The notes beneath the pieces are model-generated. The model was not told the origin of the DNA. It was given only the letters and a program-made list of their open reading frames with translations, and did not search any database. A stretch of DNA of 64,000 nt from an uncultured virus (IMG/VR IMGVR_UViG_3300042013_000063). Its lineage: Duplodnaviria > Heunggongvirae > Uroviricota > Caudoviricetes. Of the stretch, positions 9,971 through 56,789 are shown one piece after another; position 1 is the stretch's first letter, and every line of letters starts with the position of its first letter. The stretch lies in IMG/VR virus record IMGVR_UViG_3300042013_000063. The stretch is one strand, 5' to 3'. Position numbers and translations under genes: made by a program.

Positions 9971-11863
9971 ATGGCTGTTAAAAACCAACTTGATGCCGGC
10001 ACCCCAGAAGAGCGCGCACCTCGCCAAGACCGTACCGAGCGTACGTCCGAGCGTGCAGCGACTCCTGAACAGTCGACTCGTCGCCAAGGCTCCCTGAAAG
10101 ACGTCAACCGTCTACTGGGTGGCCCTCTGGCTCGTAACACCGGTGGCGAAGCTCTGGTCCACGCAATCACTGCGTTGAAAGACTGGCTGCACGCCGACAA
10201 AAACGTTGGGGGCAGCGGTGTCCTTCAACTGGACAAGCTGACCATCCTCGGCCTGGAGTCGAGCGAGTACAACACCCAGGTTTCCTCGGTGATCTTCGCT
10301 TACCCTCATGAGCAAGATGGCAAGCTGAACGTCTACACCTACGTCGCTGCGCTGGAAGGCTCGATCGACGGCGAAATCCCTGCGCGTATCTACGACCAGA
10401 ACCGTCGTCAGTACCCAGTGCCTGGCGTCGTCGGCGACTTCGTGACCGAAGGCTACCTGAAGACCGCTGCTGACATCGTTAGCAAGCACTTCAGCAACGA
10501 GCGTCGTCAAGTCGAAGTTATCGACAGCGGCTGGCGTACCGTGGGCAAACTGGTGGACTTCTCCCTCAAGGATAACCCAGCAGTTCGCAATATCGCGTTC
10601 TACGCCATCGCTTCCCTGAACGCAATGGTTACCGCAGACGTCGACAACGACCTGTTCTTCGACCTGGACTGGCTCGCTAAAGGCGAGAACCTCGATATCT
10701 CTATCGACGTGTCCGGCCGCGAATTGCAAACCGCCGACCTGCTGCCGCGCCGTTCCGATCTGGTGATCAACATCTCCGGTTCGATTCAGGTTGACGACAC
10801 CCAAGTGCGCAACAAGCTGACCACCGTCGGCGGTTACATCAACCTGGTCTACTCGCCTGATGAAGTCGAGAAGTCCTTCAGCCGCAACCGTGACCAGAAG
10901 ACTCAGGTTTACACCCCAATCTTCATCATGGACAACCTGGACACCGGCGGCAACGCTATCACTCCAGAGCTGCTGTTGCTGGGTATCGCTGGCGCTTCGG
11001 TGATCAGCCGTAGCCAGAACTGGGCGCAAGTGTTCCTGCCGAACGACGTTCAGCGTGGCGCTACCGACTACCGCGACACTGGCTACCTGGGCCTGTTGGG
11101 CCAGAAGCGTGCGTACGTGGACGTTGGTAACCGCACCAGCCTGGACATCGACGAATGGTCCGACTACTTCTTCAGCCTGGTGCGTGAAGAGCTGGCGTGG
11201 GGCATCGAAGTCGAAGAAGGCGGCGACAACAGCTGGATCACTTCCCTGCTGTGGGCTGCTGCAACCGGCGACCGTGACTCGGAAGACCGGCTGTGGGAAT
11301 ACGCTGACCGCCTGACCCTGGGCAACTTCAGCCCGCGTGCGCGCGATCTGGGTGTTAGCAAGTTCGTCAGCCTGTCCGGTTCCCGCTACCTGTCGGGTAC
11401 TTACGTCGACGAGAAAGGCGACGTGCGCGACCTGCGTGACTTCGACATGCTGCGCTGGTTGGTACAAACCGGTAACGAAGATCCTACCATCGCCATCGAC
11501 TGGCAGGAAACCTTCGACAACCCGGACATCGACTGGGAAGTGCGCGTTGCTGAACAGCACCGCATGCTGACTTCGGTCCTGGGCACCAACCTGCAATACA
11601 GCCGTTACGTCAACCTGCTGTACGTGAACCCGGACGCCATCAAGGCGTTGGCTCAGGCCGTAGACGACTGCAAAGTCGGCATCGACCAGAACCAGACCAT
11701 GTACACCTTCGGCAACCGTCGTCTGCGTGGTAACACTCGCATTCACGAGTTCGCATCGGGTGACGTGTCTGGCGGTATCTTCAACCGTTCCCGCGATGTT
11801 GGCGGCAGCCGTGGTTCGCGTCGTTCGCCTCTGGGCAACGGCCTCGGTCGTCGTAACTTCTAA
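9971..11863 (+). CDS. chmA: chimallin, phage nuclear shell protein (phiKZ gp54-like)
   Basis: 630 aa, disordered N-terminus and G/R-rich C-terminus, strong codon bias, AGGAG RBS, immediately upstream of the nvRNAP beta' gene as in nucleus-forming phages. Confidence 0.9.
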   Translation: MAVKNQLDAGTPEERAPRQDRTERTSERAATPEQSTRRQGSLKDVNRLLGGPLARNTGGEALVHAITALKDWLHADKNVGGSGVLQLDKLTILGLESSEYNTQVSSVIFAYPHEQDGKLNVYTYVAALEGSIDGEIPARIYDQNRRQYPVPGVVGDFVTEGYLKTAADIVSKHFSNERRQVEVIDSGWRTVGKLVDFSLKDNPAVRNIAFYAIASLNAMVTADVDNDLFFDLDWLAKGENLDISIDVSGRELQTADLLPRRSDLVINISGSIQVDDTQVRNKLTTVGGYINLVYSPDEVEKSFSRNRDQKTQVYTPIFIMDNLDTGGNAITPELLLLGIAGASVISRSQNWAQVFLPNDVQRGATDYRDTGYLGLLGQKRAYVDVGNRTSLDIDEWSDYFFSLVREELAWGIEVEEGGDNSWITSLLWAAATGDRDSEDRLWEYADRLTLGNFSPRARDLGVSKFVSLSGSRYLSGTYVDEKGDVRDLRDFDMLRWLVQTGNEDPTIAIDWQETFDNPDIDWEVRVAEQHRMLTSVLGTNLQYSRYVNLLYVNPDAIKALAQAVDDCKVGIDQNQTMYTFGNRRLRGNTRIHEFASGDVSGGIFNRSRDVGGSRGSRRSPLGNGLGRRNF

Positions 11864-11886
11864 GGTCGGCCTGTAGTAAGTGCATT

Positions 11887-11932
11887 CAGGGGGAGCCTCG
11901 CTCCCCCTGTCTGTGCCCTTTCTTTTTATGCC
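11887..11932 (+). terminator. intrinsic terminator after chmA
   Basis: CAGGGGGAGC-CTC-GCTCCCCCTG stem then CTGTGCCC and T-rich tract. Confidence 0.75.
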
Positions 11933-11938
11933 TAAAGG

Positions 11939-13438
11939 GTGCTCAGATTGAAACAGCGTAACGGCATCTACTTTAAGATTTTCGATTATGAGAAGGCTTA
12001 TCGTGGGCTCAACCAAGAACCCATCCATGTAAACGAGTTCGACATCTCGCTTGAGTCTGAGCGTGAGCGGTTGAATTCCCTCATCTATACAAGCTACGAC
12101 GGCGACACACTGTCCAACGTACCCCGTTGCGACTGCGGTTGTGTAACCGGTGAAGACAACATGGGCATCCGCTGTCGCGAGTGTCGTTCTGTTGTGCTGC
12201 CTATTACTGAAAAACCACTGGAGTCTATCCTGTGGATCAAAGTACCGGACGGCGTACCAGCGTTCTTCAACCTCACCGTGTGGCGCATCCTGAACAAGAA
12301 CCTCACGTACTCAGGTTTCAGCTTGCTGGAATACATGACGAACGTGTTCTACCACCCAACGCAGAAAGAACCCGCAGACAAGATGCGGAAACTTGAGCGC
12401 CTCGGGATTCCACGTGGTTACAACAACTTCGTGAACAATTACGAAGCGATCATCCAGGCTCTGTTCAAAGCCAACCTGTTCCCCGGTAACGCACGCCGCC
12501 GCAAGAAGGTGTTGACGTTCCTGCAAGAAAACCTGCACCTGACCTTCACGACGGTCCTCCCATTCCCGTCGAAGATGGGCTTTATCACCGAGACCAACAA
12601 CGGCAAGGTGAGCGCAGACCACAAGATGGCCCCGGCCATCGACGCTATCTGGACGATTGTCGGTATCTACCAGAAGGCGAAGAAGAAAAAGAACACCCCG
12701 GAGTTTGAAGACAACTACGACGAACGTGGCGAGCCTACACAGCTGCGTAAAGAAAGTCGTTGCGTCCGCTCCATGTGCAAACTGGTTGAGTTCTACCGGG
12801 AATTCGAATCAGAGACGGCCTTTAAGAAGCCGGGCATCGCACGTAAGCTGATTTACGGTACGCGTCCACACTTCACGTACCGGGCTGTAATCACCTCGCG
12901 TCAGAAGCCGCACAACTACGATGGCCTGGATCTTCCGTGGTCATTGTCAGTACTGCTGTTCAGCGTTCACTTGGCCAACAAGCTCCTGAAGCAACGGTTC
13001 ACACCGAATGAGCTGAAGGCGCTGCTGTTCGAGAACACGCTGCGTTACCACCCGCACCTTGCGGACTTGTTCAAGGAACTCATCAGTGAGTCCAAGGACG
13101 ACCGCATCCCGACTGCCTTTGGTCGTAACCCTACGCTGAAACGGGGTTCGATTGGTTGCAACGGGATTGAGTCGGTGAAGGATGACCCGTCGGATAACAC
13201 CGTCAGCATCTCTCCACTTAACCTCATTGACAAGAACGCCGACTTTGACGGCGATGCCTTGTGGGGCGAATTGCCTCTGGATCACAAGAACGCCGAAGCC
13301 CTCGACCGTCTTGCTCCTTTCACTGGGGTAATGGACCTCAACCGCCCATTCACTGTATCCCGTAACGTGACCCTGCCGCCGCCTCTGGTAGCGACCATCA
13401 CGAACTGGATCATCGAAGGGGATGAAATTTCAACCTAA
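11939..13438 (+). CDS. non-virion RNA polymerase beta' N-terminal subunit (phiKZ gp55-like)
   Basis: Catalytic NADFDGD motif, RNPTL motif, N-terminal Zn site (CDCG...CREC); start GTG 11939 or TTG 11948. Confidence 0.92.
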   Translation: MLRLKQRNGIYFKIFDYEKAYRGLNQEPIHVNEFDISLESERERLNSLIYTSYDGDTLSNVPRCDCGCVTGEDNMGIRCRECRSVVLPITEKPLESILWIKVPDGVPAFFNLTVWRILNKNLTYSGFSLLEYMTNVFYHPTQKEPADKMRKLERLGIPRGYNNFVNNYEAIIQALFKANLFPGNARRRKKVLTFLQENLHLTFTTVLPFPSKMGFITETNNGKVSADHKMAPAIDAIWTIVGIYQKAKKKKNTPEFEDNYDERGEPTQLRKESRCVRSMCKLVEFYREFESETAFKKPGIARKLIYGTRPHFTYRAVITSRQKPHNYDGLDLPWSLSVLLFSVHLANKLLKQRFTPNELKALLFENTLRYHPHLADLFKELISESKDDRIPTAFGRNPTLKRGSIGCNGIESVKDDPSDNTVSISPLNLIDKNADFDGDALWGELPLDHKNAEALDRLAPFTGVMDLNRPFTVSRNVTLPPPLVATITNWIIEGDEIST

Positions 13439-13453
13439 TGTGGAGATCAGACA

Positions 13454-14077
13454 ATGGCAATCGCCGTATATGCCGATGACCAAGTCTTCAGGGCATTAGC
13501 CTATGGCGCGCCGCGGTCAGACGACCGGGATTACCTGCGTGACCACATCGAATCAGCTGCTGCTCGTTTGGGGCGTTCTGCCACTGCATTCGTCGATCGT
13601 GCTCGTGAACGGTTTGAATCGTTTGACTTGCGTGCCCTCGATCGTAAGCTGGATGCAATCAAGCGTAAGGTTCGCCATGCGTTTGACGATGACCGTATCC
13701 GTCCGATGACCCGGATCGGTGAGTTCCAGCAGGCTGGTATCAATCAGCAGCGCTGGCTCATGGCTAACCCGAAAGCAAGACGTCTGGTGCAACAAGACCG
13801 GATGTTCGGCTGGCGTGGGTCGTACAGGGATATGGAACCGGGTGCACTCGGCGACACCCACCGCGACTACCGTTGCGTGGTCAATGGTATTGCTCGTACT
13901 GACGAACACGGCAATCGTTACTTCGAGCAGCACTTTGACGTGTACGATGCTGATTACCGCGAAGAGCTCAAGTTCGGCGATCAGACAATGATCATGGACT
14001 GCATGTGGGCCAACCTCGAGGCGATCATCGCCGATGGCAAGGACGACCCGTCCGACCCAGACAACGGTTCTATCTAA
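13454..14077 (+). CDS. conserved phiKZ-like core protein (gp59-like by synteny, tentative)
   Basis: GGAG RBS; 207 aa; follows nvRNAP beta' gene. Confidence 0.65.
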   Translation: MAIAVYADDQVFRALAYGAPRSDDRDYLRDHIESAAARLGRSATAFVDRARERFESFDLRALDRKLDAIKRKVRHAFDDDRIRPMTRIGEFQQAGINQQRWLMANPKARRLVQQDRMFGWRGSYRDMEPGALGDTHRDYRCVVNGIARTDEHGNRYFEQHFDVYDADYREELKFGDQTMIMDCMWANLEAIIADGKDDPSDPDNGSI

Positions 14078-18977: not shown

Positions 18978-19724
18978 ATGGCTGAACAAAACGAACGCGT
19001 CGAAACGATCTTTGATGATCCGAGCTTGGCGCTCAAAGCTGCAAAAGTTGGTGACATGGAAGGCGAGCCTACCTTACGTCCTAGCGTTTACGAGAACAAC
19101 CCGCGCTTCACCGTGCGGACTCGGGTACCTAACGACCGTAACAACGGCAAGATCGACGCAGCCACGAGCAGCCGCGCGTTCTTCTCCGTGCTCCGTGCAG
19201 TGGAGAAAGTGGCTAACCATGTTGGCCCTACCAAGATCTTCATGGACAACAAAGGCCACCGCTTCGTTGATAAGAAGCGTGACCCGAACCCGTCGCTCAT
19301 GTCCTGCATCATGATCGAGAAGACCGACAACGGTACCATCACACTGACCATCAGTGCTGGTAAGAACCGTCCGTTGATTACCTTCCCGTTCCTGGACTGC
19401 ACCTACCACCAGTTCCGTGGCGCCGATGGCAATCAGATGCAGATCGCCGAAGCTTCACAGCTGTACGCGTTGGGCTGGGTTGACGAACTCCGCATGCTGA
19501 CCCCAATCGTAATCGCCAACGGCTATAAGAAGCCGGCTTGGATGACCCGCAACCAAGGTGGCGGTAACTTCAACGGTGGTGGCGGTGGTAATGGCGGTGG
19601 TGGTAACAACTGGCAGCAGCGTCCGCAGCAACAACAGCAAAGCGCTTATGGCGGTGGTGGTGGTCAGCAGGCAGCTCCGACTGGCGGCAACGACTTCAAC
19701 TTCGACGACGACGTCCCGCTATAG
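18978..19724 (+). CDS. chmC: ChmC-like nucleic-acid-binding protein (phiKZ gp67-like)
   Basis: Beta-rich N-terminal domain, G/N/Q-rich disordered tail, acidic tip FDDDVPL; lies upstream of the gp68-like and picA genes. Confidence 0.7.
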   Translation: MAEQNERVETIFDDPSLALKAAKVGDMEGEPTLRPSVYENNPRFTVRTRVPNDRNNGKIDAATSSRAFFSVLRAVEKVANHVGPTKIFMDNKGHRFVDKKRDPNPSLMSCIMIEKTDNGTITLTISAGKNRPLITFPFLDCTYHQFRGADGNQMQIAEASQLYALGWVDELRMLTPIVIANGYKKPAWMTRNQGGGNFNGGGGGNGGGGNNWQQRPQQQQQSAYGGGGGQQAAPTGGNDFNFDDDVPL

Positions 19725-19734
19725 GAGTTAAGGT

Positions 19735-20160
19735 GTGAAGGATAATGAAGTATGGCGGCGATCACCAAGTGAACCTGAGTTGATGGTTTCTTCTCATGGG
19801 AGAGTCATGGTATCCCCGTACGAACGCCCAATGCCCTATGGTGGCCATCGGTGTTACGGCGGTGTACCAACGACTGGTTCATGGGATGGAAAACGTTATG
19901 TGTACTCCCGTAAGGGACATGCAACCCTTAAAGTTGCACGCTTGATCTGCGAGGCTTTCAATGGTCCGCCAGATCCTGGTCACATGGCTTTACACGAAGA
20001 CGAGAATTCCAGGAACAACAGACCGGGAAATCTCCGATGGGGCACGTGTAAAGAGAATCTCAACTACCCAGGTTACCTCGAATACTGCCATTCCCGAACA
20101 GGGGATGATAGCCCAGCCCGTAAAGGTGCCGTTGCCAAACGCAAACTACTCACACCATGA
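19735..20160 (+). mobile_element. free-standing NUMOD4-HNH homing endonuclease
   Basis: N-terminal EVWR...MVSSHGRV (NUMOD4-like); VARLICEAF...ALHEDENSRNNRPGNLRWGTCKEN (HNH motif); AGGAG RBS overlaps the chmC stop. Confidence 0.85.
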
Positions 20161-21842: not shown

Positions 21843-23351
21843 ATGCAAATCCTTGAACTCATTTTTCGGGAAATGAAAGAGTACGACGACCAGATGATTC
21901 GTCCGTACTCGGGGAACGCATCGCCGGGCAACCTGCATGATCTGGAAATCGCTACCGACCACGGCCGTGACTTCTCTCCATCGGCATTGTCCGGTCTTGC
22001 TGGGCGGATCATCCGTCCCATTGCGGAAACCAGCCACCGTGCAGCTATCGCCAGCGGATGGGGCGAAGTGCGCATGATGTTTGCCATGAAGGTGCTGGTA
22101 CGTGAGACTCGTACCTCGCAGCAGATCCACGAGATCAGCGGCTACACCGATCACATGGGCGCCACTAACACCCTGCGTGGTGTGAAGATGGATGAGCGCA
22201 TGTGCATGTACTTCAACTCCGTGACGCGGATTCACCGTTCGATGACGGACACCCCTCGTGGTAGCCGTTGGTTGACCAACATCAACAAGTCGAACCAGAT
22301 CATCAGCAAGCAGTCCAACCCGGACTTCACCTTGGCACGTGGTAGCCAGGGTACGATGACCATGCGTCCAGAAGACTTGATGAGTCGCAACACGACCAAC
22401 GAGATCTTCGCCAAGCGTGCGCGGGCAGAAGGCAGCATGGATCTTCGTGGCGGTTACGCCATGGGCACCATGAAACTGTCCAACCGTTTGAACACCAGTT
22501 CGACCCGCTTCATGTCGCGCTCGATGTCGGCCATTGCCACAGCTGACGCTGGCGATGGACACATCGACGCTTACCAGCACGACCGTGACATCACGAAGAT
22601 CTTTAAAGATGCTCGTGGCCAGGTGCGTGAGGACGGTATCACTACCGACCCAATCTTCGAAGAGCTGAGCGCCGACACCAACATCTTGCACGACGGTTTC
22701 ATCACGTACGGCGAGTTGGTCGAGATGAACAAGGACTTCGACTGGGAAAGCGTACCGGTCTACTTCACCGAGAAGGGCCAGCGCAAGTCTGTCCGTGGCG
22801 ACTATCGTCCATGGAACGGCATGGAGAACGAAGATATTGCTGCCACCATGTTGGTGAACGCTCTGCCGATGTATCTCATCAACCACCAGCTGGCCGCTGT
22901 ATCCTTCACCGCCCGGAACTTCGACAGTCTGGGTGAAATGGTCGCTGTAGCGGATAACGCTGTACCGATCATGGAAGGGCCGAACCTGCGTGAAGTCTTG
23001 CCGGTCTTCGTGCAGCGCCTGGAAAGCGAGATCCTGCTGGACATGCTCCCATGGGAAGGTTGCCAGTTGGACCTTCAGGTGGAAACGGCAATCGCCGGTG
23101 AAACCTACGTCAAGATCTCCCTTGACGGTGGTAACTACGAAGAGTACGTGTTCCCAACCTTCTGTGACTCGGTGGTATCGCCAGTAGTCACCGAAAGCCA
23201 AGAACACATGGACGACATGGCCAGTACTGTCCACCAGATTGCCGAGTCTCTCGGCAGTAGCCTGAACTACGACGACGATACTGATAAACGCAGCAGCAGC
23301 CGCATTATCACAGACTCGCGTGCCCCATCTTCACCTCGACGGTCGTACTAA
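21843..23351 (+). CDS. picA: phage nucleus protein-import factor PicA/Imp1 (phiKZ gp69-like)
   Basis: 502 aa; motifs RPY, IASGW...R..F, GYTDH, YFNS, RPED, PTFCDS..SP; conserved position after the gp68-like gene. Confidence 0.8.
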   Translation: MQILELIFREMKEYDDQMIRPYSGNASPGNLHDLEIATDHGRDFSPSALSGLAGRIIRPIAETSHRAAIASGWGEVRMMFAMKVLVRETRTSQQIHEISGYTDHMGATNTLRGVKMDERMCMYFNSVTRIHRSMTDTPRGSRWLTNINKSNQIISKQSNPDFTLARGSQGTMTMRPEDLMSRNTTNEIFAKRARAEGSMDLRGGYAMGTMKLSNRLNTSSTRFMSRSMSAIATADAGDGHIDAYQHDRDITKIFKDARGQVREDGITTDPIFEELSADTNILHDGFITYGELVEMNKDFDWESVPVYFTEKGQRKSVRGDYRPWNGMENEDIAATMLVNALPMYLINHQLAAVSFTARNFDSLGEMVAVADNAVPIMEGPNLREVLPVFVQRLESEILLDMLPWEGCQLDLQVETAIAGETYVKISLDGGNYEEYVFPTFCDSVVSPVVTESQEHMDDMASTVHQIAESLGSSLNYDDDTDKRSSSRIITDSRAPSSPRRSY

Positions 23352-42663: not shown

Positions 42664-42729
42664 GAGCGTCGTCGTTTGTCTCTTATGCCTAAAAGCCAAT
42701 ACCGGCTGGGGCTATTAAGGAATACCCTC

Positions 42730-43815
42730 ATGATTAACCACACGTACCCGATAGCAGTGTCTCCTGAAATCATCATGATCTCCGAGCGTAACTGGGATAT
42801 CCGTGCCATGGATAACCACATGGTGAAGCACGAGCGCATCCCCAGTACCAACCTGCCTAACCTCGAACTGGAATACGTCGCTGAGGATGGTACTACGGCC
42901 CATGTCCGGTTCAGGGTCGATCTCAAGAACTGTCAGTTTGGTGAGACCAAAAGCCTCTGGCCGTTTAACTTCGAAGAGAAGGTCCTGAAGTTTGCCGCAC
43001 GTGTGGGTAAAGAACTAGGGTTCACGTTACCTGACCACCCCACCGCCACCAGAACACGCTCCAATAAGGCAGCAATCAAGAACCTGATGTTCGCACTGTT
43101 TGATCCATGGTCGAACATGCACAACATCCTGAGCCCTGTTGCTTCGCCGAACATCATCAGGTCTCGCCTGCCGACCACGAAGTTCGCATCGTGGAACTAC
43201 CGGGAAAAGCCATACCCGTGGTTTAAAGACAAGGCGATCTACGGCGTCTGTGGTCACTTCCGTCTAGGTACCCAGATTGGCTTCTTCGTGATCGACTCCC
43301 TGGTGGGTGCGATCCGCGATGGCAATCGTCCTGACAGTGATTACGGGATCAACGACACTCACCGTCTGCTTGAGCAACACCGTATGCACATCCTGAGCTG
43401 CTGGCCGTTTGCACAGCAACTGGGACTGGAGATGGAGCTGGCTAAGCGCCCTTGTGCCAATCTCCTGGAACTGAACGACTACGCTGCCGAGGTGTTCTAC
43501 CACACCGCGTTGGCCAATGGTGATCTGGAGAAGGTCGTTAACCGCAACCCTACCGTGCGTCCAGCTTGGGGTGTGGCCCCGAAAGAACGGTGGGAGAACA
43601 TGACTGTTCATGCGATCATGCGCTACTTCATGCACGATGGTCTCGAAGTCCCTCGCTTCCTTGCCCTACTGGCTCGGGAGAACGTCCCTTACACCACGAC
43701 CTTGGAAGTGGATGTCATGGGTAACGACAGTGTAGGGATTTTCTTGAAGGGTAACGCTGATCCCCTGATGACCCTCACTCGTCCAAGCCGTGCAGTGGAG
43801 AACGACAATGATTGA
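42730..43815 (+). CDS. hypothetical protein
   Basis: AAGGA RBS before ATG 42730. Confidence 0.8.
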   Translation: MINHTYPIAVSPEIIMISERNWDIRAMDNHMVKHERIPSTNLPNLELEYVAEDGTTAHVRFRVDLKNCQFGETKSLWPFNFEEKVLKFAARVGKELGFTLPDHPTATRTRSNKAAIKNLMFALFDPWSNMHNILSPVASPNIIRSRLPTTKFASWNYREKPYPWFKDKAIYGVCGHFRLGTQIGFFVIDSLVGAIRDGNRPDSDYGINDTHRLLEQHRMHILSCWPFAQQLGLEMELAKRPCANLLELNDYAAEVFYHTALANGDLEKVVNRNPTVRPAWGVAPKERWENMTVHAIMRYFMHDGLEVPRFLALLARENVPYTTTLEVDVMGNDSVGIFLKGNADPLMTLTRPSRAVENDND

Positions 43816-46950: not shown

Positions 46951-46956
46951 TTTATG

Positions 46957-47057
46957 GCGGGGTTAACTCAATTGGATAGAGTACTGCCAGTAACCGTCCT
47001 GTCCCCATCAGACGGTGACCGCGGGAGATGCCGGTTCGAATCCGGTGCCCTTCCCCA
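46957..47057 (+). ncRNA. tRNA-like RNA with extended anticodon arm
   Basis: Canonical D arm (TA-ACTC-AATTGGATA-GAGT), T arm (GCCGG-TTCGAAT-CCGGT), imperfect acceptor stem and encoded CCA; anticodon arm ~24 nt too long. Confidence 0.7.
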
Positions 47058-47059
47058 CT

Positions 47060-47206
47060 ACACGTCCCTCGGTGTGCACGCCCTGGGAAGCGACTTTGTC
47101 GAGGTTCATCCGATAAAGCTACGCAGTGTTACCTGATGGACTACCATACGACCTCCTCATGGAGACGTGGTACGTGACTTTGTTGGTAGAACAGTAACCC
47201 GCACAA
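47060..47206 (+). ncRNA. candidate structured RNA 4 (multibranch)
   Basis: CTTTGTCG/CGATAAAG, GTTAC/GTAAC, CTACCA/TGGTAG and CTCC/GGAG stems. Confidence 0.45.
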
Positions 47207-47215
47207 AGCCTCTGT

Positions 47216-47257
47216 ATCCTCCTCCCGAAAGGGAGGAGGATGTATGCCCTCTTCTTT
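47216..47257 (+). terminator. terminator closing the RNA cluster
   Basis: ATCCTCCTCCC-GAAA-GGGAGGAGGAT then GTATGCCC and pyrimidine tract. Confidence 0.75.
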
Positions 47258-47275
47258 AACCATTAGGAGCAACAC

Positions 47276-47554
47276 ATGGTCATCCCGGACAACGCACTAA
47301 TCCTCAATGGCAAGGTTATTGCCATCTTAGAAGAGAGTTCTGCTGCTAGCCTTATTGAGTTGGCGGACGGAGGTAACCAACCGGGTATGCAATACTGCGG
47401 TCTGGAGATCCCTCTGCGCCGTAATGATGACACCATTGACAGACAACCTATCAATCACCGCGCAGATGCTGAGACCCCTGTCAGCAAACGTGAGGTAAAG
47501 TTGACGATTGAGTTCACTCGCCGGGGTGAAACCAAGTTCGTAGTCGACCGCTAA
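47276..47554 (+). CDS. hypothetical protein
   Basis: AGGAG RBS; 92 aa. Confidence 0.7.
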   Translation: MVIPDNALILNGKVIAILEESSAASLIELADGGNQPGMQYCGLEIPLRRNDDTIDRQPINHRADAETPVSKREVKLTIEFTRRGETKFVVDR

Positions 47555-47575
47555 GATCCCACTTTATTTCGATCC

Positions 47576-47593
47576 TACATTACTCGGGTGATG
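47576..47593 (+). promoter_or_regulatory. putative early promoter TACATTAC
   Basis: ACTTTATTTC-GATCC-TACATTAC...GTGAT. Confidence 0.7.
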
Positions 47594-47636
47594 TAACCTA
47601 CAAGGATACACTTTACCTAAGTCAAGGGGACTTGAG

Positions 47637-48059
47637 ATGAATGCTTTAGAGTTTGCACGTGCGTACTTCAACTTCTGTGGAGACATCGGGGAAAGACCCG
47701 AGCATGTAATTGTTTCTGCGGGAGGTGCGCTACTGATGCTTGGGCTGCGTGATGAGACTGATGACTTGGACTTGGACGTACGTCAGATTGTGTACGCCGC
47801 TTTGTCCACGCGTCTGGGTCATAGCAAGCAACGTCGTTCTAGCCATGGTACTTACCTGGACTATACCGACAAGATCAGCCTGCACGTGACACCAGCTCGC
47901 ATCACGACTCAGGTGGTTAATGGGGTCACCCTGTATTCCATCAATGACTTGATCAAGCAGAAAGAGAAGTTGGCCAAAGCTCCTGATCGTAAACCTGAAA
48001 AGGCAGAACAGGATCGTAAAGACATCGAAGCCCTTATGAAGCTTCAGCTCCAGCACTAA
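47637..48059 (+). CDS. minimal Pol-beta-superfamily nucleotidyltransferase-like protein
   Basis: SAGGALLMLGLRDETDDLDL (GG..R.T.DxD) and C-terminal K...R..K...D..DI motif. Confidence 0.75.
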   Translation: MNALEFARAYFNFCGDIGERPEHVIVSAGGALLMLGLRDETDDLDLDVRQIVYAALSTRLGHSKQRRSSHGTYLDYTDKISLHVTPARITTQVVNGVTLYSINDLIKQKEKLAKAPDRKPEKAEQDRKDIEALMKLQLQH

Positions 48060-48111
48060 CCAATAGAAAGGGTGAGACATGAGTCTCACCCGACCATCCA
48101 AGGGGATAACA

Positions 48112-48555
48112 ATGCAATTGCTCAAGACACGTACTCAGCGTCACGAAGCACGCAAACAAGTGCTCAACGCTGTCAACAAGGCAGTGAACGAGTGCATGAT
48201 CATTCAACCTGGCTTGTTCAAGATGTGCGACCGCTGTGTCTACATGGTGGACATGAGCAAGGCAGAACTGGGCTACGTCACGGTCTCCGTGATTGCCACC
48301 AAGATTCAGTTCGATGATGAATCGCCGACCGTGCTGATGAACAAGGAGCTCTACGGTAAGTACAAGTACTGGGGTCGTATCGAGCACCTCATCGGCAACA
48401 AGTGGTCGTTCGTCCGCGAGACCCGCATCAAAGAAGGCCGGACTATCTGGTCGAGCAACCTGCTGTTCCAATTCGATGTAGCAATGCCTGAACAGTTCGT
48501 GGGTCGTCAGATCTACCGTACATTCAACGACTACGTCACCAACAAGATTTCCTAG
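48112..48555 (+). CDS. hypothetical protein
   Basis: AGGGGA RBS before ATG 48112; hairpin 48070-48091 upstream. Confidence 0.75.
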   Translation: MQLLKTRTQRHEARKQVLNAVNKAVNECMIIQPGLFKMCDRCVYMVDMSKAELGYVTVSVIATKIQFDDESPTVLMNKELYGKYKYWGRIEHLIGNKWSFVRETRIKEGRTIWSSNLLFQFDVAMPEQFVGRQIYRTFNDYVTNKIS

Positions 48556-48563
48556 GAGGTCCA

Positions 48564-49079
48564 ATGTACAACACCACTTGTATCCATTGTGGCCTTCGGG
48601 CCTGTGTATGCGGTTACATGTATCGCGGCTGGTCGAAGGAAGAACTGGAAGGTGCTATCAACACCATGCAGAACATCCTAGCTCACCCAATGAAAGAGAA
48701 TCCACAGTTGTTGTCACTGGAGGACCCGCTGGAGCGTACTCCATGCAACGGCGATATCATTTTCGACTTTGGTCGGGAGCTGTCCATCTGGGAACGTTGG
48801 AAGCTTCGCAAGAAGCGCAAGAGTCTCGAGACGCTCTGGAAAGGTGCGGAGTTCCGGTTCCGTCCTGACTGTCCGCTGGTAAGAACTGGCGACTGCACAG
48901 AGCTTCAAGGGGTTGTAGAGGTACACAGCTGGGATATCGACGGCTATGGTAACTACTGCTACACCATCACGTCACGCGGGTTGGATGGGAAAGTGATCAC
49001 CTTCGGTACGTCGACGTACGACAGAACCGGCGGCCCTCACCCAGATGTTCACCCTAAATACATCTTGATAAGAGGTTAA
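48564..49079 (+). CDS. hypothetical protein with N-terminal CxxC-x4-CxC motif
   Basis: AGGAGG RBS; CIHCGLRACVCG. Confidence 0.8.
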   Translation: MYNTTCIHCGLRACVCGYMYRGWSKEELEGAINTMQNILAHPMKENPQLLSLEDPLERTPCNGDIIFDFGRELSIWERWKLRKKRKSLETLWKGAEFRFRPDCPLVRTGDCTELQGVVEVHSWDIDGYGNYCYTITSRGLDGKVITFGTSTYDRTGGPHPDVHPKYILIRG

Positions 49080-49081
49080 CC

Positions 49082-49489
49082 ATGGCACGTTTACATTTCA
49101 ATGTTGCACTGGACGCTGTAAAGTACTTCCAACTGCGTGATCGCATTGACACGCAGTTCGGCAAGGTCGTACACGACGTCGTCATCGAAGGCGTGTCTAC
49201 CAAGGCGTGCATCTTCGGTGGGCAAGACTTCTACGCTGCTTACCGTAATCTGCACGGTGAGCCGAAGATGATGACTGCGGACTTGGACAAGATGAAGTTC
49301 CGGGAAGATGATCTTCCACCGGGCATTCACTGGCCACTGATGCAGTCGCTGTTGCTGGGCTTCATCCCTGACGTACTGTTGACAGAATGGCATCGCGGTC
49401 AGTTGGGTATCCATCTGGACATGCTGGCGATCTGTACGGACAGAGTAAACGAGTACGTGGTGTTCTGCGAAAAGCACGACATCTCGTAA
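49082..49489 (+). CDS. hypothetical protein
   Basis: GAGGT RBS; 135 aa. Confidence 0.75.
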   Translation: MARLHFNVALDAVKYFQLRDRIDTQFGKVVHDVVIEGVSTKACIFGGQDFYAAYRNLHGEPKMMTADLDKMKFREDDLPPGIHWPLMQSLLLGFIPDVLLTEWHRGQLGIHLDMLAICTDRVNEYVVFCEKHDIS

Positions 49490-49526
49490 TACCACCCGAA
49501 CTATCATCCCTAGAAAGGAATCAACC

Positions 49527-50984
49527 ATGTCTAAAGAAATCTGCCCAATGTGCGCTGAAGAGATCTGCATCTGCGGTGAAGCGTACAAAGGTCTCGGTGC
49601 TTCTCAGCTCGAGATCCTTATTCCGATCCTGGTGCGTCAGTACGAGAATACCCCGGAATATCACGAGTCGATGGCTCGTCACGTGAACTTCTACGGCACC
49701 GTTTCCCAGTTCATCATGGCGCCTCCGGCACCACGGTTCCGTGAGCACCCTGGCATCAACAGCGACCTGTACTTCGGACGCCCTCAGCAGTCTGGCTACG
49801 CGTCCCGTCAGAACGATCAAACCTTCCGTTACGACATGTTGATCCCTGGTCTGATCGTACGCTGGGGCGAGCACCATGGGAAATTGGTGACTGTCACTGA
49901 ACGTAACTCTGAAGCCAACTTGCGTTACAAGATGCTGTCGGTAGAAGACCCTGAGAAGGGTGTTGCGCTGTTCGCAACTGGTCCGGTTGATAACTACAAC
50001 TGGCCTGACCTTGATGGTCAGCACCACACCAACGTCAGGGTTCTCGATATGTTCATCGAGGTTCCAGACGAGATGCGTGATGAAGTGGCAAAACACCTGG
50101 TCAGTCTTGGTCACGAGTATGTGCACCGTAAACTAGCGTTGATGTTTGGCACTCGCCATAGCAGTCTGAGCGAAGGTCTGGAACTGGGTCGGCCTCCTTA
50201 CGGCTTCGGTCATGAGAAACGGGCATTTGACTACCGTCAAGTCTCACCTCGACAGTGGACTGAAATAGGTGAACGTAAGCCGCACGATCGTGACGAGCAG
50301 ATCGATCTTCGCCAAGCTTTTGCGTCCGCCCAGATGCACACCAACGCTTTGCTGGACAGTATGGACCGTCCGTGGACGGAGAATACTTCTGAATATGTGA
50401 AGTATCGTCCTCTGCGTTCGGGTACGAAGTTCAAGTTCCTGGAAGCTGCTGGTCCTGACTTTGTAGGCGAGTGGGTGGTCACTGGTTTCCAATTGTTTGA
50501 TGAAGACAAAGGACCTAAGCTGCAAGTGGCGAGTATCGTGGCCATGTGCGGCGAAGATTCGATTGCATTCTACACGTCGTACAGTGTGGATCAGGTCGAT
50601 GAGGCGCTGGTGCCGTTCGTCTCGATGGAACATATCGAGATCCTGCCAATCAGTTGGGATGACATTCAAGAACCTACTGAACACCCCTTCAAGCAATTGC
50701 AGGTGGGCAAGAAGATCGGGTTCCGGCAGTGTAGCCATACCGTCGAAAAGTTCACGATCACGAAGTTAGTCTTCCGTGCGCAAAACTACGGTCTGCACAA
50801 GCCAGACGAACTGGTTGTGCTGGTTACGATTGATGTGCCGGAGGGTTCTGAATCCGGTGGCGTGTTCGTGGGACAGTACACGTTCTACACCAGTAACAGC
50901 AATAACCGTGCAGTAGGGAAGGTGGAAGGTGCGGACGACTTCGTCTACCCGTCCGATCTCCTGTTTGAAGATCAGCCACAATAA
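49527..50984 (+). CDS. hypothetical protein with N-terminal CxxC-x4-CxC motif and repeated beta domains
   Basis: AAGGA RBS; CPMCAEEICICG. Confidence 0.8.
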   Translation: MSKEICPMCAEEICICGEAYKGLGASQLEILIPILVRQYENTPEYHESMARHVNFYGTVSQFIMAPPAPRFREHPGINSDLYFGRPQQSGYASRQNDQTFRYDMLIPGLIVRWGEHHGKLVTVTERNSEANLRYKMLSVEDPEKGVALFATGPVDNYNWPDLDGQHHTNVRVLDMFIEVPDEMRDEVAKHLVSLGHEYVHRKLALMFGTRHSSLSEGLELGRPPYGFGHEKRAFDYRQVSPRQWTEIGERKPHDRDEQIDLRQAFASAQMHTNALLDSMDRPWTENTSEYVKYRPLRSGTKFKFLEAAGPDFVGEWVVTGFQLFDEDKGPKLQVASIVAMCGEDSIAFYTSYSVDQVDEALVPFVSMEHIEILPISWDDIQEPTEHPFKQLQVGKKIGFRQCSHTVEKFTITKLVFRAQNYGLHKPDELVVLVTIDVPEGSESGGVFVGQYTFYTSNSNNRAVGKVEGADDFVYPSDLLFEDQPQ

Positions 50985-51034
50985 CCCCCGATAAAGACTG
51001 GGTCATCGCGACCCAGTCTCACCAAGGAGCATGT

Positions 51035-52414
51035 ATGATTAACCGTGCCACTGAGTTAACTGAAGCCCGTATCACCTTCATCCGCGTTGGTGGTTACGCT
51101 GACCAACACTCGTATCCATTGAGCCCGCTACATGCCTCACAGCGACTTCTGAACGAGGTTAACAACCTGAAGGAGCGCCCTGACTTCGAGAAGAGCCTCA
51201 TCGCGCATCTGGTCAAGGAGCATGTCCACTTCGACAACGAAGCACCGGAACGCAAGGTCGCCATCCCAGGCGGTTGGGATGCACCCCGTTACGCCTTCGT
51301 ATTGGAAGTGCCGCTCAATGCTCACATCGGTTACCACCTCAGCTCGACCATTCAATTGGTAGCTGGTTACACTGATCCGGTTCCTCGTGGTGAAGAGCCG
51401 AACGACAAGACCAAGCTGTACTTCAACCGCAGTGTGATCCAGCAGCGTATGAAGGTCATGGGTCCCACTGGGATCGAGGAGATGGCCAAGATCTCCCACG
51501 ACACATTGATCCTCAATGGCGAGCAACGCGATCGACTGCTGCGCCCTAGTGACGTGTTCGGCGTGTTGCGTACCATGGCACTGGTTGACCGCCTGCATCA
51601 AGGTGGCATGGCTCCCGACATCATGGATACCACCACCATGATTGCTGGCAGTCGTCTGAAATCCACAGCCGCAGCGAATGAGAACCTGAAGCATTGGTTC
51701 ACGTCAGTGGTGCAGAGTGTGATCAATGCCAAGCAGGAAGACCATCCGATTTTCGAGGGAACGCCGGAAGACCTGTACTCGAACGCCTTGAGTCATTGCC
51801 ACGACGCACCGATCTCACAAGATCCAATGTTCTCTGCCCTCTACGCCAGCACGGGTTTTGACTACGACAACAGTGTCTTGTTGCAGGACATCAAGGATCT
51901 CTTCCCGAAAGACTTCGTCAAGGTCATCCAGGCAGAGCGTGAAAGTGCAGACTGTTTGCGTGGTGCAGAAGGGTGCTCTGAAGTCAGTGCAGCGAACCGT
52001 GCCATCTCCTGCTTCTCTGGCATCATGTCCCTGCACGGCGTTCGCACCTGCATGGTTCAAGTCATTGACCGTGTGGTTCAGATCAATCAGATCGGCGGTT
52101 TTGGTCTATCCATCCCTGACCGTGACCTGCAAGCGTTCCATGAACACCTGTCGGAAGAACTACCAGTGCTCTTGGGCTACGACACAGCCCCGATGCACTT
52201 CTCGATTGACATCGACCTGTTCACTGAAGCGAATGTGCAGATCTACTACCCGCCTGCTGGGCTGCGTGACGGCCCTAACCTACCAGTGATCACTCCGATC
52301 ACGACGACGCGTCCAATGTTCGCCAGCGGCCTCTGGAGCTCGTTGATCACACGGGACAACACCCATCAGGAACAGATGGCTGACGACTTCAAGTATCTGA
52401 TCGGCCAGCTGTAA
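51035..52414 (+). CDS. second, divergent PicA/Imp1 paralog
   Basis: Collinear motif matches to 21843..23351: IPGGW..PRYAF, GYTD, LYFN, RPSD, DPMF, PMFASGLWS; AAGGAG RBS. Confidence 0.8.
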   Translation: MINRATELTEARITFIRVGGYADQHSYPLSPLHASQRLLNEVNNLKERPDFEKSLIAHLVKEHVHFDNEAPERKVAIPGGWDAPRYAFVLEVPLNAHIGYHLSSTIQLVAGYTDPVPRGEEPNDKTKLYFNRSVIQQRMKVMGPTGIEEMAKISHDTLILNGEQRDRLLRPSDVFGVLRTMALVDRLHQGGMAPDIMDTTTMIAGSRLKSTAAANENLKHWFTSVVQSVINAKQEDHPIFEGTPEDLYSNALSHCHDAPISQDPMFSALYASTGFDYDNSVLLQDIKDLFPKDFVKVIQAERESADCLRGAEGCSEVSAANRAISCFSGIMSLHGVRTCMVQVIDRVVQINQIGGFGLSIPDRDLQAFHEHLSEELPVLLGYDTAPMHFSIDIDLFTEANVQIYYPPAGLRDGPNLPVITPITTTRPMFASGLWSSLITRDNTHQEQMADDFKYLIGQL

Positions 52415-52420
52415 CCACTC

Positions 52421-52462
52421 GATGATCCGGGGTAACTCCCGGATCATCTTTTCTTTTTGTTT
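52421..52462 (+). terminator. intrinsic terminator
   Basis: GATGATCCGGG...CCCGGATCATC then TTTTCTTTTT. Confidence 0.85.
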
Positions 52463-52483
52463 GAATGCACTTTATTTCAGCAA

Positions 52484-52501
52484 TACATTGTACTGGTGAA
52501 T
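52484..52501 (+). promoter_or_regulatory. putative early promoter (TACATTGT variant)
   Basis: ACTTTATTTC-AGCAA-TACATTGT...GTGAAT. Confidence 0.65.
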
Positions 52502-52545
52502 ACAGAAACTACCCTGTAACTACCCAAGTCTTTAGGAGACTCGCT

Positions 52546-52989
52546 ATGAACGTATCCACTTTCAAAACCCTGACCACTCTTCGCTCCCACTTCGAACGCG
52601 TGTTCATGAACTACAGCATCCACGATGCTAACAAGCCTTATGACTTCACCCTCCAGAAAGTGGAGCTGGTGCACGAGAAGGTAATCAAACCAGAAGTCAC
52701 CCTGATGTTCGGCCAGTACGGTGATTACTTCATCATCGGTGAACTGCTGGAAAACGATACTCCTTTCTTCATCGACGTGGCTGCTGATGAAGGACACACC
52801 GATGAACTCCCAGACTACGTCCAGCACATGCTGGTCGCAGCTGCTAAAGCGGGCGTGGTTCCAACCGCACTGCTGGAGATCATCATCAAATGGCGTGGGA
52901 TCGTTGATACCAGTAACATGGACATCAACACCTTCTTCGGTGATGAGTGTGCAAAGGGTTTGAAAGACCTTGAAGCCTCTGCACTGTAA
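52546..52989 (+). CDS. hypothetical protein
   Basis: AGGAG RBS before ATG 52546. Confidence 0.8.
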   Translation: MNVSTFKTLTTLRSHFERVFMNYSIHDANKPYDFTLQKVELVHEKVIKPEVTLMFGQYGDYFIIGELLENDTPFFIDVAADEGHTDELPDYVQHMLVAAAKAGVVPTALLEIIIKWRGIVDTSNMDINTFFGDECAKGLKDLEASAL

Positions 52990-53024
52990 ACATCGCCGCA
53001 CTGCGTGACGAGTAACAGCATAGA

Positions 53025-53080
53025 CAGCATAGAGACCCGGCGATAAGCCGGGTCTCTATGCTGCTTTCTTTTTTCTTTGT
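53025..53080. terminator. bidirectional terminator
   Basis: 17-bp stem CAGCATAGAGACCCGGC/GCCGGGTCTCTATGCTG plus long T-tract, between convergent genes. Confidence 0.85.
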
Positions 53081-54820
53081 TTACGCTGCTTCCAACTCCA
53101 GCTCTTCTTCGAAGGCATCCAGCAGTTCCCATGAGTTCGGCGCCTTCAGTGCGTCCGTCATGATCTCAATGGCATTCACAGCACCACCCGTGAGGTTGAT
53201 ACCGAGTAGCCTTTGCTTGCTTGGGAGTACGCCCGCTACTCGACACACCTCCATCATCGTAGTCATCTTCGACAGGTTCATCAGGATCTCGCCGTTCGGG
53301 TACGTTGACCCAATGTCGGCGTCGGATACACCCTTACGAACAAAGCTGCGGACTGTCGGCAGTTCTTTGATGAGGAACACGCCGTTGGCTACGACGTTGT
53401 GCGTTGGCAGGGTTACGATCCAGTCGTCCTTACCCAGCAACAGACGGTCGTTCTCATCTTCCATCTGGTCAGAGCACGTACCGGCGATCAGACCTTCCTT
53501 ACGCATCGCGAAGTAGAACTCGTTCACGTTACGCTTAGGGTTGGAGTTGAAGACGGTGTACTCGGAGCTTTCCGACAGGATACTGACCTGAGTCGACAAG
53601 TCCGTGGTGACCTCGTCCAGCAGCTCAATACCCAAGTTGTCGAAGATGTTGTAGACGATGTAGTTGACTTTGTAGTACTTCTGCATCTGCATGTGCCATT
53701 CGACACTGCCCGGTACAGCGGTACTGTCACCCATTGGGAAGTAGAGCTTGCCTATGTCATCGCCCAAGTTCTTCTTCATGGTGTAGTCGAGGCCGTAACT
53801 TGGCTCTTTACCAGCAGCAGTACGGATCTTACGGTACACGCACATCGGGTCAATCCAGACAAACGAGGCTGGAGCTTCTACGACGTTCCAACGGTCAGAA
53901 GGGGGTAGGTTCTCAATAGAACCGTCAGCCTTCTTCTTCGTGGTCGGACCTGGCTTGTACTTGAAGTGACGATACTCAGGCGGTACACGAGGGTCACTGA
54001 ACACGTCAGGGAGATCGTAGCCGTCCTTCTCCAACGCACGGGTCATGACGTTGATATCGAAGTCCATGTTCCATGCACAGAGGAAGTCAGGTTGCCATTC
54101 GTGGACCCGATCCATGCACACCTTCGCCATCTTACCGGCAGAGTCGATGATCTGGATCTCGAACTTCATCCCGCGTTCTTCGATGTACTTAGCCAAGTGC
54201 TGGTGCAAGGCTTTCATGATCGTGTTGATCGGATCAGGGATGTCCTTGATCCAACTCTCCAAGATCGTCAGGATCACCTTGTCCTTACAGGTGACCGAGG
54301 AGATGATGATGTCTTTACCGTTACCGTTCCACATGTCAGTTTCGGTGTCGAGTGCGGCTACCACGTTCTGTGTGAACAGGTCAGGCCACTTCTCCTTATA
54401 CGTGCGCTTCATCAACGTAGGCGTGGTGATGTCAGCCCCGTAGATGTACTGGTTACGGCAGATGGTGCGTAACTGCTGCTTAGGGTTACCGTAACCTAAC
54501 TGCCGAATGATCGCCTTGTTCAAGCCCCGTTGGTTAGTCTCGCACTCTTTGAGCAGGTGTTCGTATTCGACTTCCTTCTTGTCCGTATGGTTACGGAACT
54601 TCTCTTTAGTGATCCAGAAGGGCCGCATGTAGTTCTTCTTGAAGACCAACCGTGGCACAGTAGAGACCGTACCGTCTGGTTGCTTGACGTAGACCAGCTC
54701 TTTGATGGTCAGTAGGTCGTCGTCTTCGTTCTCACGTGACTCGGTGTAGATGGCATGCTTACATTCGCGCCCAATGATCCACTCAGCCGGGATCTTCTTT
54801 AGGTCAATTTCGGTTGACAT
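53081..54820 (-). CDS. split family-B DNA polymerase, 3'-5' exonuclease plus motif A subunit (phiKZ gp82-like)
   Basis: ExoI DTETD, ExoII WNMDFD, ExoIII YNIFD, motif A DADIGSTYPN near the C-terminus. Confidence 0.88.
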   Translation of the reverse strand: MSTEIDLKKIPAEWIIGRECKHAIYTESRENEDDDLLTIKELVYVKQPDGTVSTVPRLVFKKNYMRPFWITKEKFRNHTDKKEVEYEHLLKECETNQRGLNKAIIRQLGYGNPKQQLRTICRNQYIYGADITTPTLMKRTYKEKWPDLFTQNVVAALDTETDMWNGNGKDIIISSVTCKDKVILTILESWIKDIPDPINTIMKALHQHLAKYIEERGMKFEIQIIDSAGKMAKVCMDRVHEWQPDFLCAWNMDFDINVMTRALEKDGYDLPDVFSDPRVPPEYRHFKYKPGPTTKKKADGSIENLPPSDRWNVVEAPASFVWIDPMCVYRKIRTAAGKEPSYGLDYTMKKNLGDDIGKLYFPMGDSTAVPGSVEWHMQMQKYYKVNYIVYNIFDNLGIELLDEVTTDLSTQVSILSESSEYTVFNSNPKRNVNEFYFAMRKEGLIAGTCSDQMEDENDRLLLGKDDWIVTLPTHNVVANGVFLIKELPTVRSFVRKGVSDADIGSTYPNGEILMNLSKMTTMMEVCRVAGVLPSKQRLLGINLTGGAVNAIEIMTDALKAPNSWELLDAFEEELELEAA

Positions 54821-54870
54821 GACCGATCCTTTTAATCAATTGAATTCTTTTAGGGTCAGGCCCTACAAAA

Positions 54871-54918
54871 CATAGTGGGTGAATGTAAGAAATGACGGAA
54901 CCAACACTAATCACTATG
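54871..54918. promoter_or_regulatory. divergent putative late promoters (CACTATG on each strand)
   Basis: CATAGTG at 54871-54877 and CACTATG at 54912-54918; TATG is the phiKZ late consensus. Confidence 0.5.
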
Positions 54919-54950
54919 ATTGCTTCATTGTTTATCCTCAGGTTGAGACC

Positions 54951-56276: not shown

Positions 56277-56287
56277 GCGAGACCGAT

Positions 56288-56737: not shown

Positions 56738-56789
56738 ACCCCTCCATGGCGCTCGTGAGAGCGCCATGGTCTATTTCCGAGGTAGTGAC

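Follow-up and report, generated by a model that had tools for sequence, protein, structure and literature searches.

A second PicA/Imp1-family gene outside the core import block of an uncultivated, predicted nucleus-forming phage

The stretch of DNA analysed here (the window) comprises 64,000 nucleotides (nt) of an uncultured virus of the Caudoviricetes (IMG/VR record IMGVR_UViG_3300042013_000063) and encodes two proteins of the PicA/Imp1 family. PicA/Imp1 is described as forming puncta at the nuclear shell's periphery and as being required for cargo import (PMC11087766; bioRxiv 10.1101/2024.03.27.586873), and its gene as part of the conserved core shared by all phages that encode ChmA (PMC11087766). 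The two genes of the window are referred to here as open reading frame (ORF) A, the canonical orthologue, and ORF B (Table 1). ORF B is a true, full-length and intact PicA/Imp1 paralog outside the core block. It lies 27.7 kb downstream of the end of A (an earlier reading of the letters, here called the sequence-only reading, had given 28 kb), among genes without a known family and beside the DNA polymerase gene.

The family assignment of the two proteins is based on profile and fold comparisons. ORF A matches PHROG 3141 with residues 1-490 (E 5e-74) and ORF B matches the same profile (E 2e-36), its residues 11-457 covering profile positions 7-484 of 510; no Pfam model was matched by either protein. 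In tblastn searches, residues 6-456 of B, 98% of its length, align with phiKZ gp69 (PHIKZ069) at 21.3% identity (E 1e-5), and A aligns with the same protein at 25.9% identity (E about 1e-24). A third copy of the family is absent, as a hidden Markov model run over the 514 stop-to-stop stretches of the six frames recovered A and B only, with the next match at E 0.18. The direct similarity between A and B is a weak signal (22% identity over 290 amino acids (aa), E 5e-9, in a two-sequence BLASTP), and the pair was not reported at E <= 0.1 in an all-against-all BLASTP of the 63 window ORFs. Because of this weak pairwise similarity, the homology of A and B rests on the profiles and on the predicted fold.

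Structure models of both proteins were built from alignments with AlphaFold2, yielding a mean predicted local distance difference test score (pLDDT) of 83.2 and a predicted template-modelling score (pTM) of 0.85 for B, and values of 71.2 and 0.71 for A. The order of the secondary-structure elements is identical in the two models, and both retrieve the same 15 of 15 chimallivirus proteins, each of about 500 aa, from BFVD. For the B model these matches range from E 3e-31 to 3e-21 with query-normalised template-modelling scores (TMq) of 0.73-0.84, followed by a sharp drop to a next match at E 5e-3. This comparison concerns predicted structures only, and sequence searches of the PDB found no solved structure of the family: alignment A3 gave no match and alignment A2 only weak fragments of Plastin-2. 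The best hit of a PDB fold search (8guo_A, Z 5.3 over 92 residues) is within the chance range. In a 17-row alignment, the family motifs GGW..R..F, GYTD, LYFN, RPxD, DPxF and a C-terminal P.F....S..T are collinear in A and B. The sequence-only reading had proposed that the 459-aa ORF follows the core PicA-like protein in order, and all the motif pairs it listed are indeed present and collinear; the alignment to gp69 and the structure prediction that it suggested as checks point the same way.

The source of the window is, as judged from its gene content, a genuine nucleus-forming phage, with homologues of ChmA, Imp3 and Imp6 and split subunits of the non-virion RNA polymerase (nvRNAP). The genes around A are arranged in the order gp66-like, gp67-like, HNH endonuclease gene, gp68-like, A, gp70-like and nvRNAP, which is the gene order of phiKZ, Erwinia phage AH06 and Proteus phage 10, and A is therefore regarded as the orthologue. 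A position in the gp66-gp67(Imp6)-gp68-gp69-gp70-nvRNAP block is found for A and not for B; such a position characterises the orthologue rather than the PicA protein family. A segmental duplication of the import block was considered as a source of B and rejected, as the neighbours of B show no paralogy to the gp67-, gp68- and gp70-like genes (BLASTP, 63 ORFs), and PHROGs gave no family for these neighbours at E 0.01. The nearest cultured relative is Pseudomonas phage pPa_SNUABM_DT01 (DT01), whose canonical protein is 45% identical to A, and a megablast of the window against the phage collection gave no match.

Phylogenetic analysis separates B and its relatives from the canonical proteins. In an IQ-TREE phylogeny of 82 rows, computed with posterior mean site frequencies (PMSF), 26 of 26 B-like rows fall on one side of a branch with a Shimodaira-Hasegawa-like approximate likelihood ratio (SH-aLRT) support of 99, and phiKZ, AH06, Proteus phage 10, DT01, the A clade and all other canonical proteins fall on the other side. 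The same split is obtained with FastTree on 125 rows (support 98). The B-like branch is long in the 82-row tree, and long-branch attraction is possible for this split. The B-like proteins are also shorter, with a median of 456 aa (417-493) compared to 499 aa (445-557) for the canonical proteins. In the 17-row alignment they are gapped at two short internal segments present in A and lack the long C-terminal tail of A, DT01 and phiKZ; short extensions at the C-terminus are present in four of the nine. The tail is not universal among canonical proteins either, being absent from AH06 and Proteus phage 10. The motifs GW, R, GYT, YFN, RPxD and PxF...S are kept across the B-like proteins. B thus belongs to a distinct short PicA subfamily.

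The origin of this subfamily was approached with an approximately unbiased (AU) test on 40 rows under LG+G4, in which a single clade of the B-like proteins and the canonical copies of the B-bearing phages was rejected (lnL difference 61.4, p 0.008). The result would fit either an old duplication followed by losses, or acquisition from a divergent lineage. In the latter case, B would be a PicA taken horizontally from an unsampled chimallivirus lineage in which the B-like protein is the only PicA. Besides the AU test, this origin is favoured by B-like clusters whose genome-sized contigs (of 266805 and 264774 nt) yielded no canonical partner, in a partner look-up that covered 10 of the 16 non-window B-like representatives. 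However, all three B-like lineages with a readable or inferred context also carry a canonical copy, B is syntenic between the window and the related IMG/VR record G001, the codon use of B has fully ameliorated, and long-branch attraction, a bias to which the AU test is equally subject, could yield the same tree. The composition of B is typical of the window, with a GC content of 0.549 compared to 0.535 +/- 0.026 and a correlation of relative synonymous codon usage of 0.889 (rank 36 of 42 counted from the lowest). Together with the synteny between the window and G001, this favours long residence over recent transfer, and horizontal acquisition is considered an improbable origin. Vertical inheritance forms part of the preferred reading given below and is covered by the joint estimate stated there. 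The duplicate had been called old in the sequence-only reading, and this is upheld, as positional orthologues of B sit in phages with a core PicA sharing only 72% and 64% identity with that of the window; the AU test, with its long-branch caveat, also rejects a recent origin within the lineage.

The distribution of the two genes was surveyed in cultured phages with INPHARED (August 2025). A found matches in 150 records at 150 places; for B the corresponding figures were 90 and 90, for the B-like protein P0170 four and four, and the B-like protein P0013 found none; two PicA copies in one cultured phage were not seen in any of the 150 records. That PicA is a single core gene, as the sequence-only reading had stated, agrees with the one place per record in 150 of 150 cultured phages and with PMC11087766. 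In addition, 16 IMG/VR contigs with a relative of A were searched over their whole length with PHROG 3141, and a second copy was found in G001 only; among the records with a completeness of 90% or more, nine of nine had a single copy. A search of 20 records, among them DT01, AH06, Proteus phage 10 and phiKZ, with a profile built from the B-like proteins likewise detected a full second copy only in G001 (1.2e-110, compared to 5e-54 on the canonical copy of G001). This survey, suggested together with a gene tree alongside the original observation as a check on multi-copy picA, found no second copy in the 150 cultured records and one among the 16 contigs. The G001 copy encodes 454 aa (L040, 7261..8625, minus strand) and lies about 27 kb from the canonical copy. 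The surrounding block is collinear with the window at 40.6-58 kb, and B occupies an equivalent position in both, next to the DNA polymerase gene. A separate observation concerns G002 (the IMG/VR record of L007), a complete genome with otherwise one PicA, in which a 252-aa ORF gave a weak B-like match at 42740..43027 on the minus strand (E 5.6e-4, profile positions 314-411); this partial match may be chance or a remnant.

Further relatives of B are found in metagenomes, where six orthologous 90%-identity clusters lie at 71-89% identity. An exhaustive representative search gave 120 proteins at E <= 1e-3; outside the cluster of B itself, the closest were P0008 (5e-36), P0009 (1.5e-33) and P0010 (1e-17), well above generic PicA. 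Scans of viral contigs with B, P0008 and P0013 and of metagenome contigs with B and P0008 gave no match. Members of the A cluster (at least 90% identity) are located on contigs of 131710, 72755, 126298 and 276392 nt, and the contigs of the B orthologues P0002, P0004, P0006 and P0165 have the same sizes; a contig size of 238711 nt is likewise common to the A-type protein P0137 (64% identical to A) and the B-like P0170. This brings the number of contigs that hold, or appear to hold, both genes to seven, the window and G001 by sequence and five by inference. Wherever the context is readable, the B-like copy is accompanied by a canonical copy, and the B-like subfamily is confined to one uncultivated clade. 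The probable source run is labelled rhizosphere, and the further runs aligned to the window are labelled plant, wastewater, rhizosphere and peat, habitat being read from run labels. The RNA-labelled runs X6 and X11 also hold related contigs, and contigs as such cannot show transcription.

Comparison of these pairs of genes points to a large difference in rate. Identities of A and B to the window are 99.2% and 88.9% on the 131710-nt contig, 94.6% and 73.0% on the 72755-nt contig, 89.2% and 75.9% on the 126298-nt contig, 99.8% and 74.1% on the 276392-nt contig, 64.3% and 24.0% on the 238711-nt contig, and 72% and 28% in G001. In the 82-row tree, the path between the B proteins of the window and G001 amounts to 4.37 changes per column compared to about 0.43 for the corresponding A pair; B thus evolves about ten times faster than A. 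A redundant duplicate without a function of its own, drifting toward loss, would account for the fast divergence of B and for its absence from most chimalliviruses. This explanation is nevertheless very improbable, as the B orthologues stay open at 454-460 aa, even at 24-28% identity, and 203 columns are invariant among the seven close orthologues of 457-459 aa. B furthermore has a strong ribosome-binding site (RBS) and terminator, core-like codon use and a confidently predicted fold. The conserved core of B appears to be under purifying selection. The variation is patchy, with variable stretches at aa 46-60, 91-105, 181-195 and 226-255 and conserved ones at aa 61-75, 121-135, 166-180, 211-225, 376-405 and 421-435. 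In the model, the variable stretches map to loops, helix ends and blocks of lower pLDDT.

At the DNA level, this variation was examined by aligning Logan contigs of four runs to window positions 47000-57000. On the 83046-nt contig of run X7, identity is 88-92% in the flanks and drops below the 80% threshold within B at 51085-51357 and 51574-51808. Run X2 has flanks of about 98% identity (25 differences in 1266 and in 1517 bases); within B, 149 unrelated letters stand in place of 51188-51344, and identity over 51344-51712 is 78%. Replaced segments are also found in the 485-aa gene directly upstream of B, where relatives differ at 49696-49809 and 49696-50398. Seven of the ten matches to this neighbour lie on contigs that agree in nucleotide size with carriers of B-like genes (20255, 83046, 26898, 72755, 131710, 126298 and 10429 nt). 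The identity of the neighbour is uncoupled from that of B: on the 131710-nt contig the neighbour is 47% and B 89% identical, and on the 83046-nt contig these values are 87% and 74%. Such a pattern looks like reassortment of alleles of B and the 485-aa neighbour, as a linked gene pair, between near-identical phages.

The 485-aa neighbour gave no lead in Pfam, PHROGs or the ESM Atlas. Its N-terminal cysteine module, CxxC-x4-CxCG-[EY]-x-Y-[KR], is shared with the 171-aa protein encoded in the same operon and is found in no other window ORF, nor in the 18-kb region of G001. Among orthologues of the 485-aa protein the first ~55 residues are almost invariant and the remainder falls to 47% identity, and by analogy this conserved head and variable body are reminiscent of polymorphic effector architectures. 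One extension of these observations, at present a doubtful one, is that the B-like genes constitute a polymorphic nuclear-import specificity locus, the alleles of which would reassort with the Cys-module neighbour and gate accessory effectors or rival proteins. If this were true, the locus would represent an incompatibility or competition system built on import machinery.

The sequence-only reading had assigned B an AAGGAG RBS of its own, which is seen at 51024-51029, and had placed B at the end of an operon, in agreement with the terminator-like hairpin right after its stop codon. As this hairpin and its T-run follow the stop codon and the next ORF, most likely starting at 52546, has its own AGGAG, B closes its transcription unit. 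A CTACATTAY motif preceded by an AT-rich stretch is located before the operon of B (47575) and also at 9890 (before chmA), 20240 (the gp68-like/A operon), 25067 (the nvRNAP beta gene) and 42645 (the gene at 42676). For phiKZ, PMC10914365 describes an nvRNAP encoded among the early genes and early promoters that are AT-rich. The CTACATTAY sites are consistent with an early-type promoter, as the sequence-only reading had suggested for the operon of B. As a promoter, CTACATTAY is a lead only.

Table 1. Features of the window discussed in the text, ordered by position.
Feature	Position	Strand	Details
Chimallin (ChmA) nuclear shell protein	9971..11863	+	630 aa; PF25677 E 1.6e-32, 112.9 bits vs cut-off 27; phrog_4795 'nuclear shell protein' 6.9e-62
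Imp3 (phiKZ gp59) homologue	13454..14077	+	207 aa; tblastn 23% identity, E 5e-14; phrog_3254
Imp6/ChmC (phiKZ gp67) homologue	18978..19724	+	248 aa; 30% identity, E 5e-20; phrog_3284
HNH endonuclease gene	19735..20160		phrog_1492, phrog_59, phrog_959; between Imp6-like and gp68-like genes
ORF A, canonical PicA/Imp1 orthologue	21843..23351	+	502 aa; phrog_3141; gp66-gp70 gene order
tRNA-like element	46956..47054		Canonical GGTTCGAATCC T-arm, long variable region
Promoter-like motif CTACATTAC	47575..47583	+	AT-rich stretch upstream; before the operon 47637..52414 that ends with B
171-aa gene in B's operon	48564..49079	+	Same N-terminal CxxC-x4-CxCG module as the 485-aa neighbour
Upstream neighbour of B	49527..50984	+	485 aa, no known family; N-terminal CxxC-x4-CxCG module, variable remainder
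10-bp inverted repeat AGACTGGGTC / GACCCAGTCT	50995..51019	+	Loop of 5, no T-run; between the upstream stop codon and B's RBS
Shine-Dalgarno AAGGAG	51024..51029	+	5 nt before the ATG of B; direct reading
ORF B, second PicA/Imp1-family gene	51035..52414	+	ATG start; 459 aa; B-like short subfamily
Terminator-like hairpin with T-run	52421-52448/52458	+	12 pairs, 7 G-C; directly after B's stop codon; consensus scan
DNA polymerase gene	53081..54820		Beside B

Several side observations concern other elements of the window. The best Rfam match of the tRNA-like element upstream of B's operon is tRNA-Sec, at 21.7 bits (gathering score 47) and E 0.26, and ARAGORN found no tRNA in the window. Relatives carry an extra 0.8-1.05 kb at 52984..53062, a region that separates the 147/174-aa ORF from the DNA polymerase gene: run X7 has 847 nt in place of 78, and run X11 has 1055 nt. 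A joint from this region to 48095-48114, itself a shared 20-nt terminator-like sequence, is also seen in contigs. Intergenic terminator-like hairpins, for example at 53025..53063, have a common core CAGCATAGAG...CTCTATGCTG, and six of the eight window occurrences of the 8-mer GCATAGAG are intergenic. These features suggest a terminator family specific to the phage, of the kind described for phiKZ. At the place of the HNH gene in the import block, Erwinia phage AH06 has a coding sequence annotated as 'restriction endonuclease', and phiKZ has none. Identity of the Imp6/ChmC homologue to its counterparts in phages with a PicA only 37-45% identical (loci L006-L021) is 64-72%, and this binding partner is therefore much more conserved than PicA. 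Finally, a minus-strand ORF at 10112..12028 (637-638 aa), initially taken as a gene, was rejected as an antisense frame of chmA. It matches phage DT01 in tblastn (39% identity, E 3e-51), because of which it could be mis-annotated as a gene.

On the evidence above, the preferred reading, held with a probability of roughly one half, is that B is a vertically inherited, functional PicA/Imp1 paralog that serves as an auxiliary, shell-associated import-specificity factor under diversifying pressure. B would be made early, together with chimallin, nvRNAP and PicA, since the same promoter-like motif precedes the chmA, A, nvRNAP and B operons. Like PicA, it would dock at the nuclear shell via its conserved core, and it could there act as an auxiliary or alternative cargo-licensing factor. 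The variable patches may serve to bind accessory cargo that itself changes, the linked upstream Cys-module protein possibly among it, or may alternatively be shaped by conflict over which proteins enter the nucleus. The sequence-only reading had raised a second cargo specificity, exclusion of nucleases and a decoy role as candidate functions of B. A second cargo specificity or a role in conflict appears more plausible than simple redundancy, because the subfamily is short and confined to one clade, changes fast and in patches, and has mosaic alleles and a mosaic linked neighbour. The data would suggest an import gate diversified by gene duplication.

The same divergence could also be expected of a conflict factor, that is, a decoy or dominant-negative PicA that occupies sites on the shell or on Imp6, or a target sensed by host defence. 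As a decoy, B could prevent import in rival chimalliviruses that co-infect the cell, or keep harmful imports out. The high divergence of B between phages with 99.8% identical A proteins agrees with this possibility, as do its mosaic alleles and its lack of the loops and tail that A has. Import specificity has furthermore been described as species-specific, with imported nucleases selecting imp1 mutations (PMC11087766; bioRxiv 10.1101/2024.03.27.586873), and an imported intron endonuclease has been described in phage competition (PMC11620839). However, the conserved core and the constant length of B fit a folded, working protein equally well, no rival-phage or defence partner was identified, and computation cannot separate a conflict factor from the import-specificity factor preferred here; the possibility is rated as unlikely.

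A comparably low probability is given to re-use of the PicA fold for a task other than import, for instance in remodelling the shell, in handling RNA together with ChmC, or at a site other than the nucleus; B would then belong to the family through its descent alone. The position of B outside the import gene block, the loss of two loops and the tail and the long B-like branch would be compatible with such a change of task, and known folds give no functional hint, neither through the fold search nor through a meaningful PDB sequence match. On the other hand, the family-wide motifs are kept across the B-like subfamily and the fold is kept over its full length, with TMq up to 0.84.

A number of points weigh against the import-specificity reading of B or narrow it. 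The co-occurrence of A and B on five contigs was deduced from equal nucleotide sizes and not from read sequence. The entire block at 41-52 kb is 24-52% identical between the window and G001, compared to 65-79% for its flanks; because the whole block evolves fast, part of B's rate is regional and may reflect relaxation or recombination instead of selection acting on B. Of eight residues of phiKZ Imp1/PicA implicated in cargo import, two fall in or next to the variable patches of B and one falls in a loop absent from B, in an alignment that is uncertain at ~20% identity. The 9-mer promoter-like motif is not enriched in the window (nine matches with at most one mismatch, compared to 5.4 expected). 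Lastly, the B operon of G001 is without Cys-module genes, and the link between B and the Cys module is therefore not general.

As a gene-family observation, ORF B is well supported, and its import role is a prediction from sequence. If that role is correct, the natural A/B pair points to which parts of PicA form an invariant docking core and which form specificity surfaces, and A/B pairs and the allelic series of B would serve as test objects for cargo-specificity swaps. The data may further suggest a continuing conflict over import selectivity in phage populations from soil, the rhizosphere and plants, and it can be asked whether the phage nucleus runs more than one import channel. No published description of a second PicA/Imp1 gene was found in the open literature, subscription papers and supplements being outside the scope of this search, and where the Chimalliviridae literature mentions paralogs alongside PicA/Imp1, these are paralogs of other genes. 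Paralogs and duplication go unmentioned in PMC11087766, bioRxiv 10.1101/2024.03.27.586873 and bioRxiv 10.64898/2026.09.21.753271.

The closest known system is PicA/Imp1 itself (phiKZ gp69, PhiPA3 gp63, 201phi2-1 gp125, PHROG 3141). It is described as the single essential factor licensing entry through the chimallin shell, with different surface patches for different cargo (PMC11087766; bioRxiv 10.1101/2024.03.27.586873), and as having cargo-specific interfaces, binding Imp6 and needing Imp3 (bioRxiv 10.1101/2024.03.27.586873; bioRxiv 10.64898/2026.09.21.753271). B resembles these proteins in its full-length family profile, predicted fold and hallmark motifs, and it is encoded together with chimallin and with homologues of Imp3 and Imp6. 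It differs from them in being a second copy beside a syntenic A and outside the gp66-gp70/nvRNAP block, and in being ~40 aa shorter, without the C-terminal tail and the two loops. B furthermore belongs to a separate clade, evolving about ten times faster, of one uncultivated lineage, and is known from sequence alone. A second comparison is with phiKZ Imp2, Imp4, Imp5 and Imp7, which are described as accessory, poorly conserved factors tuning cargo entry (bioRxiv 10.1101/2024.03.27.586873; bioRxiv 10.64898/2026.09.21.753271). Were B an importer, it would occupy a comparable place in the system. However, these factors are unrelated to Imp1 in sequence and some are themselves imported cargo, whereas B is a paralog of Imp1. 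In eukaryotes, the importins or karyopherins are duplicated transport-specificity factors that divide up cargo. The likeness to B is a functional analogy only, as the PDB search of B gave no fold match to them, and the barriers differ, being a pore complex in eukaryotes and a protein lattice in the phage nucleus.

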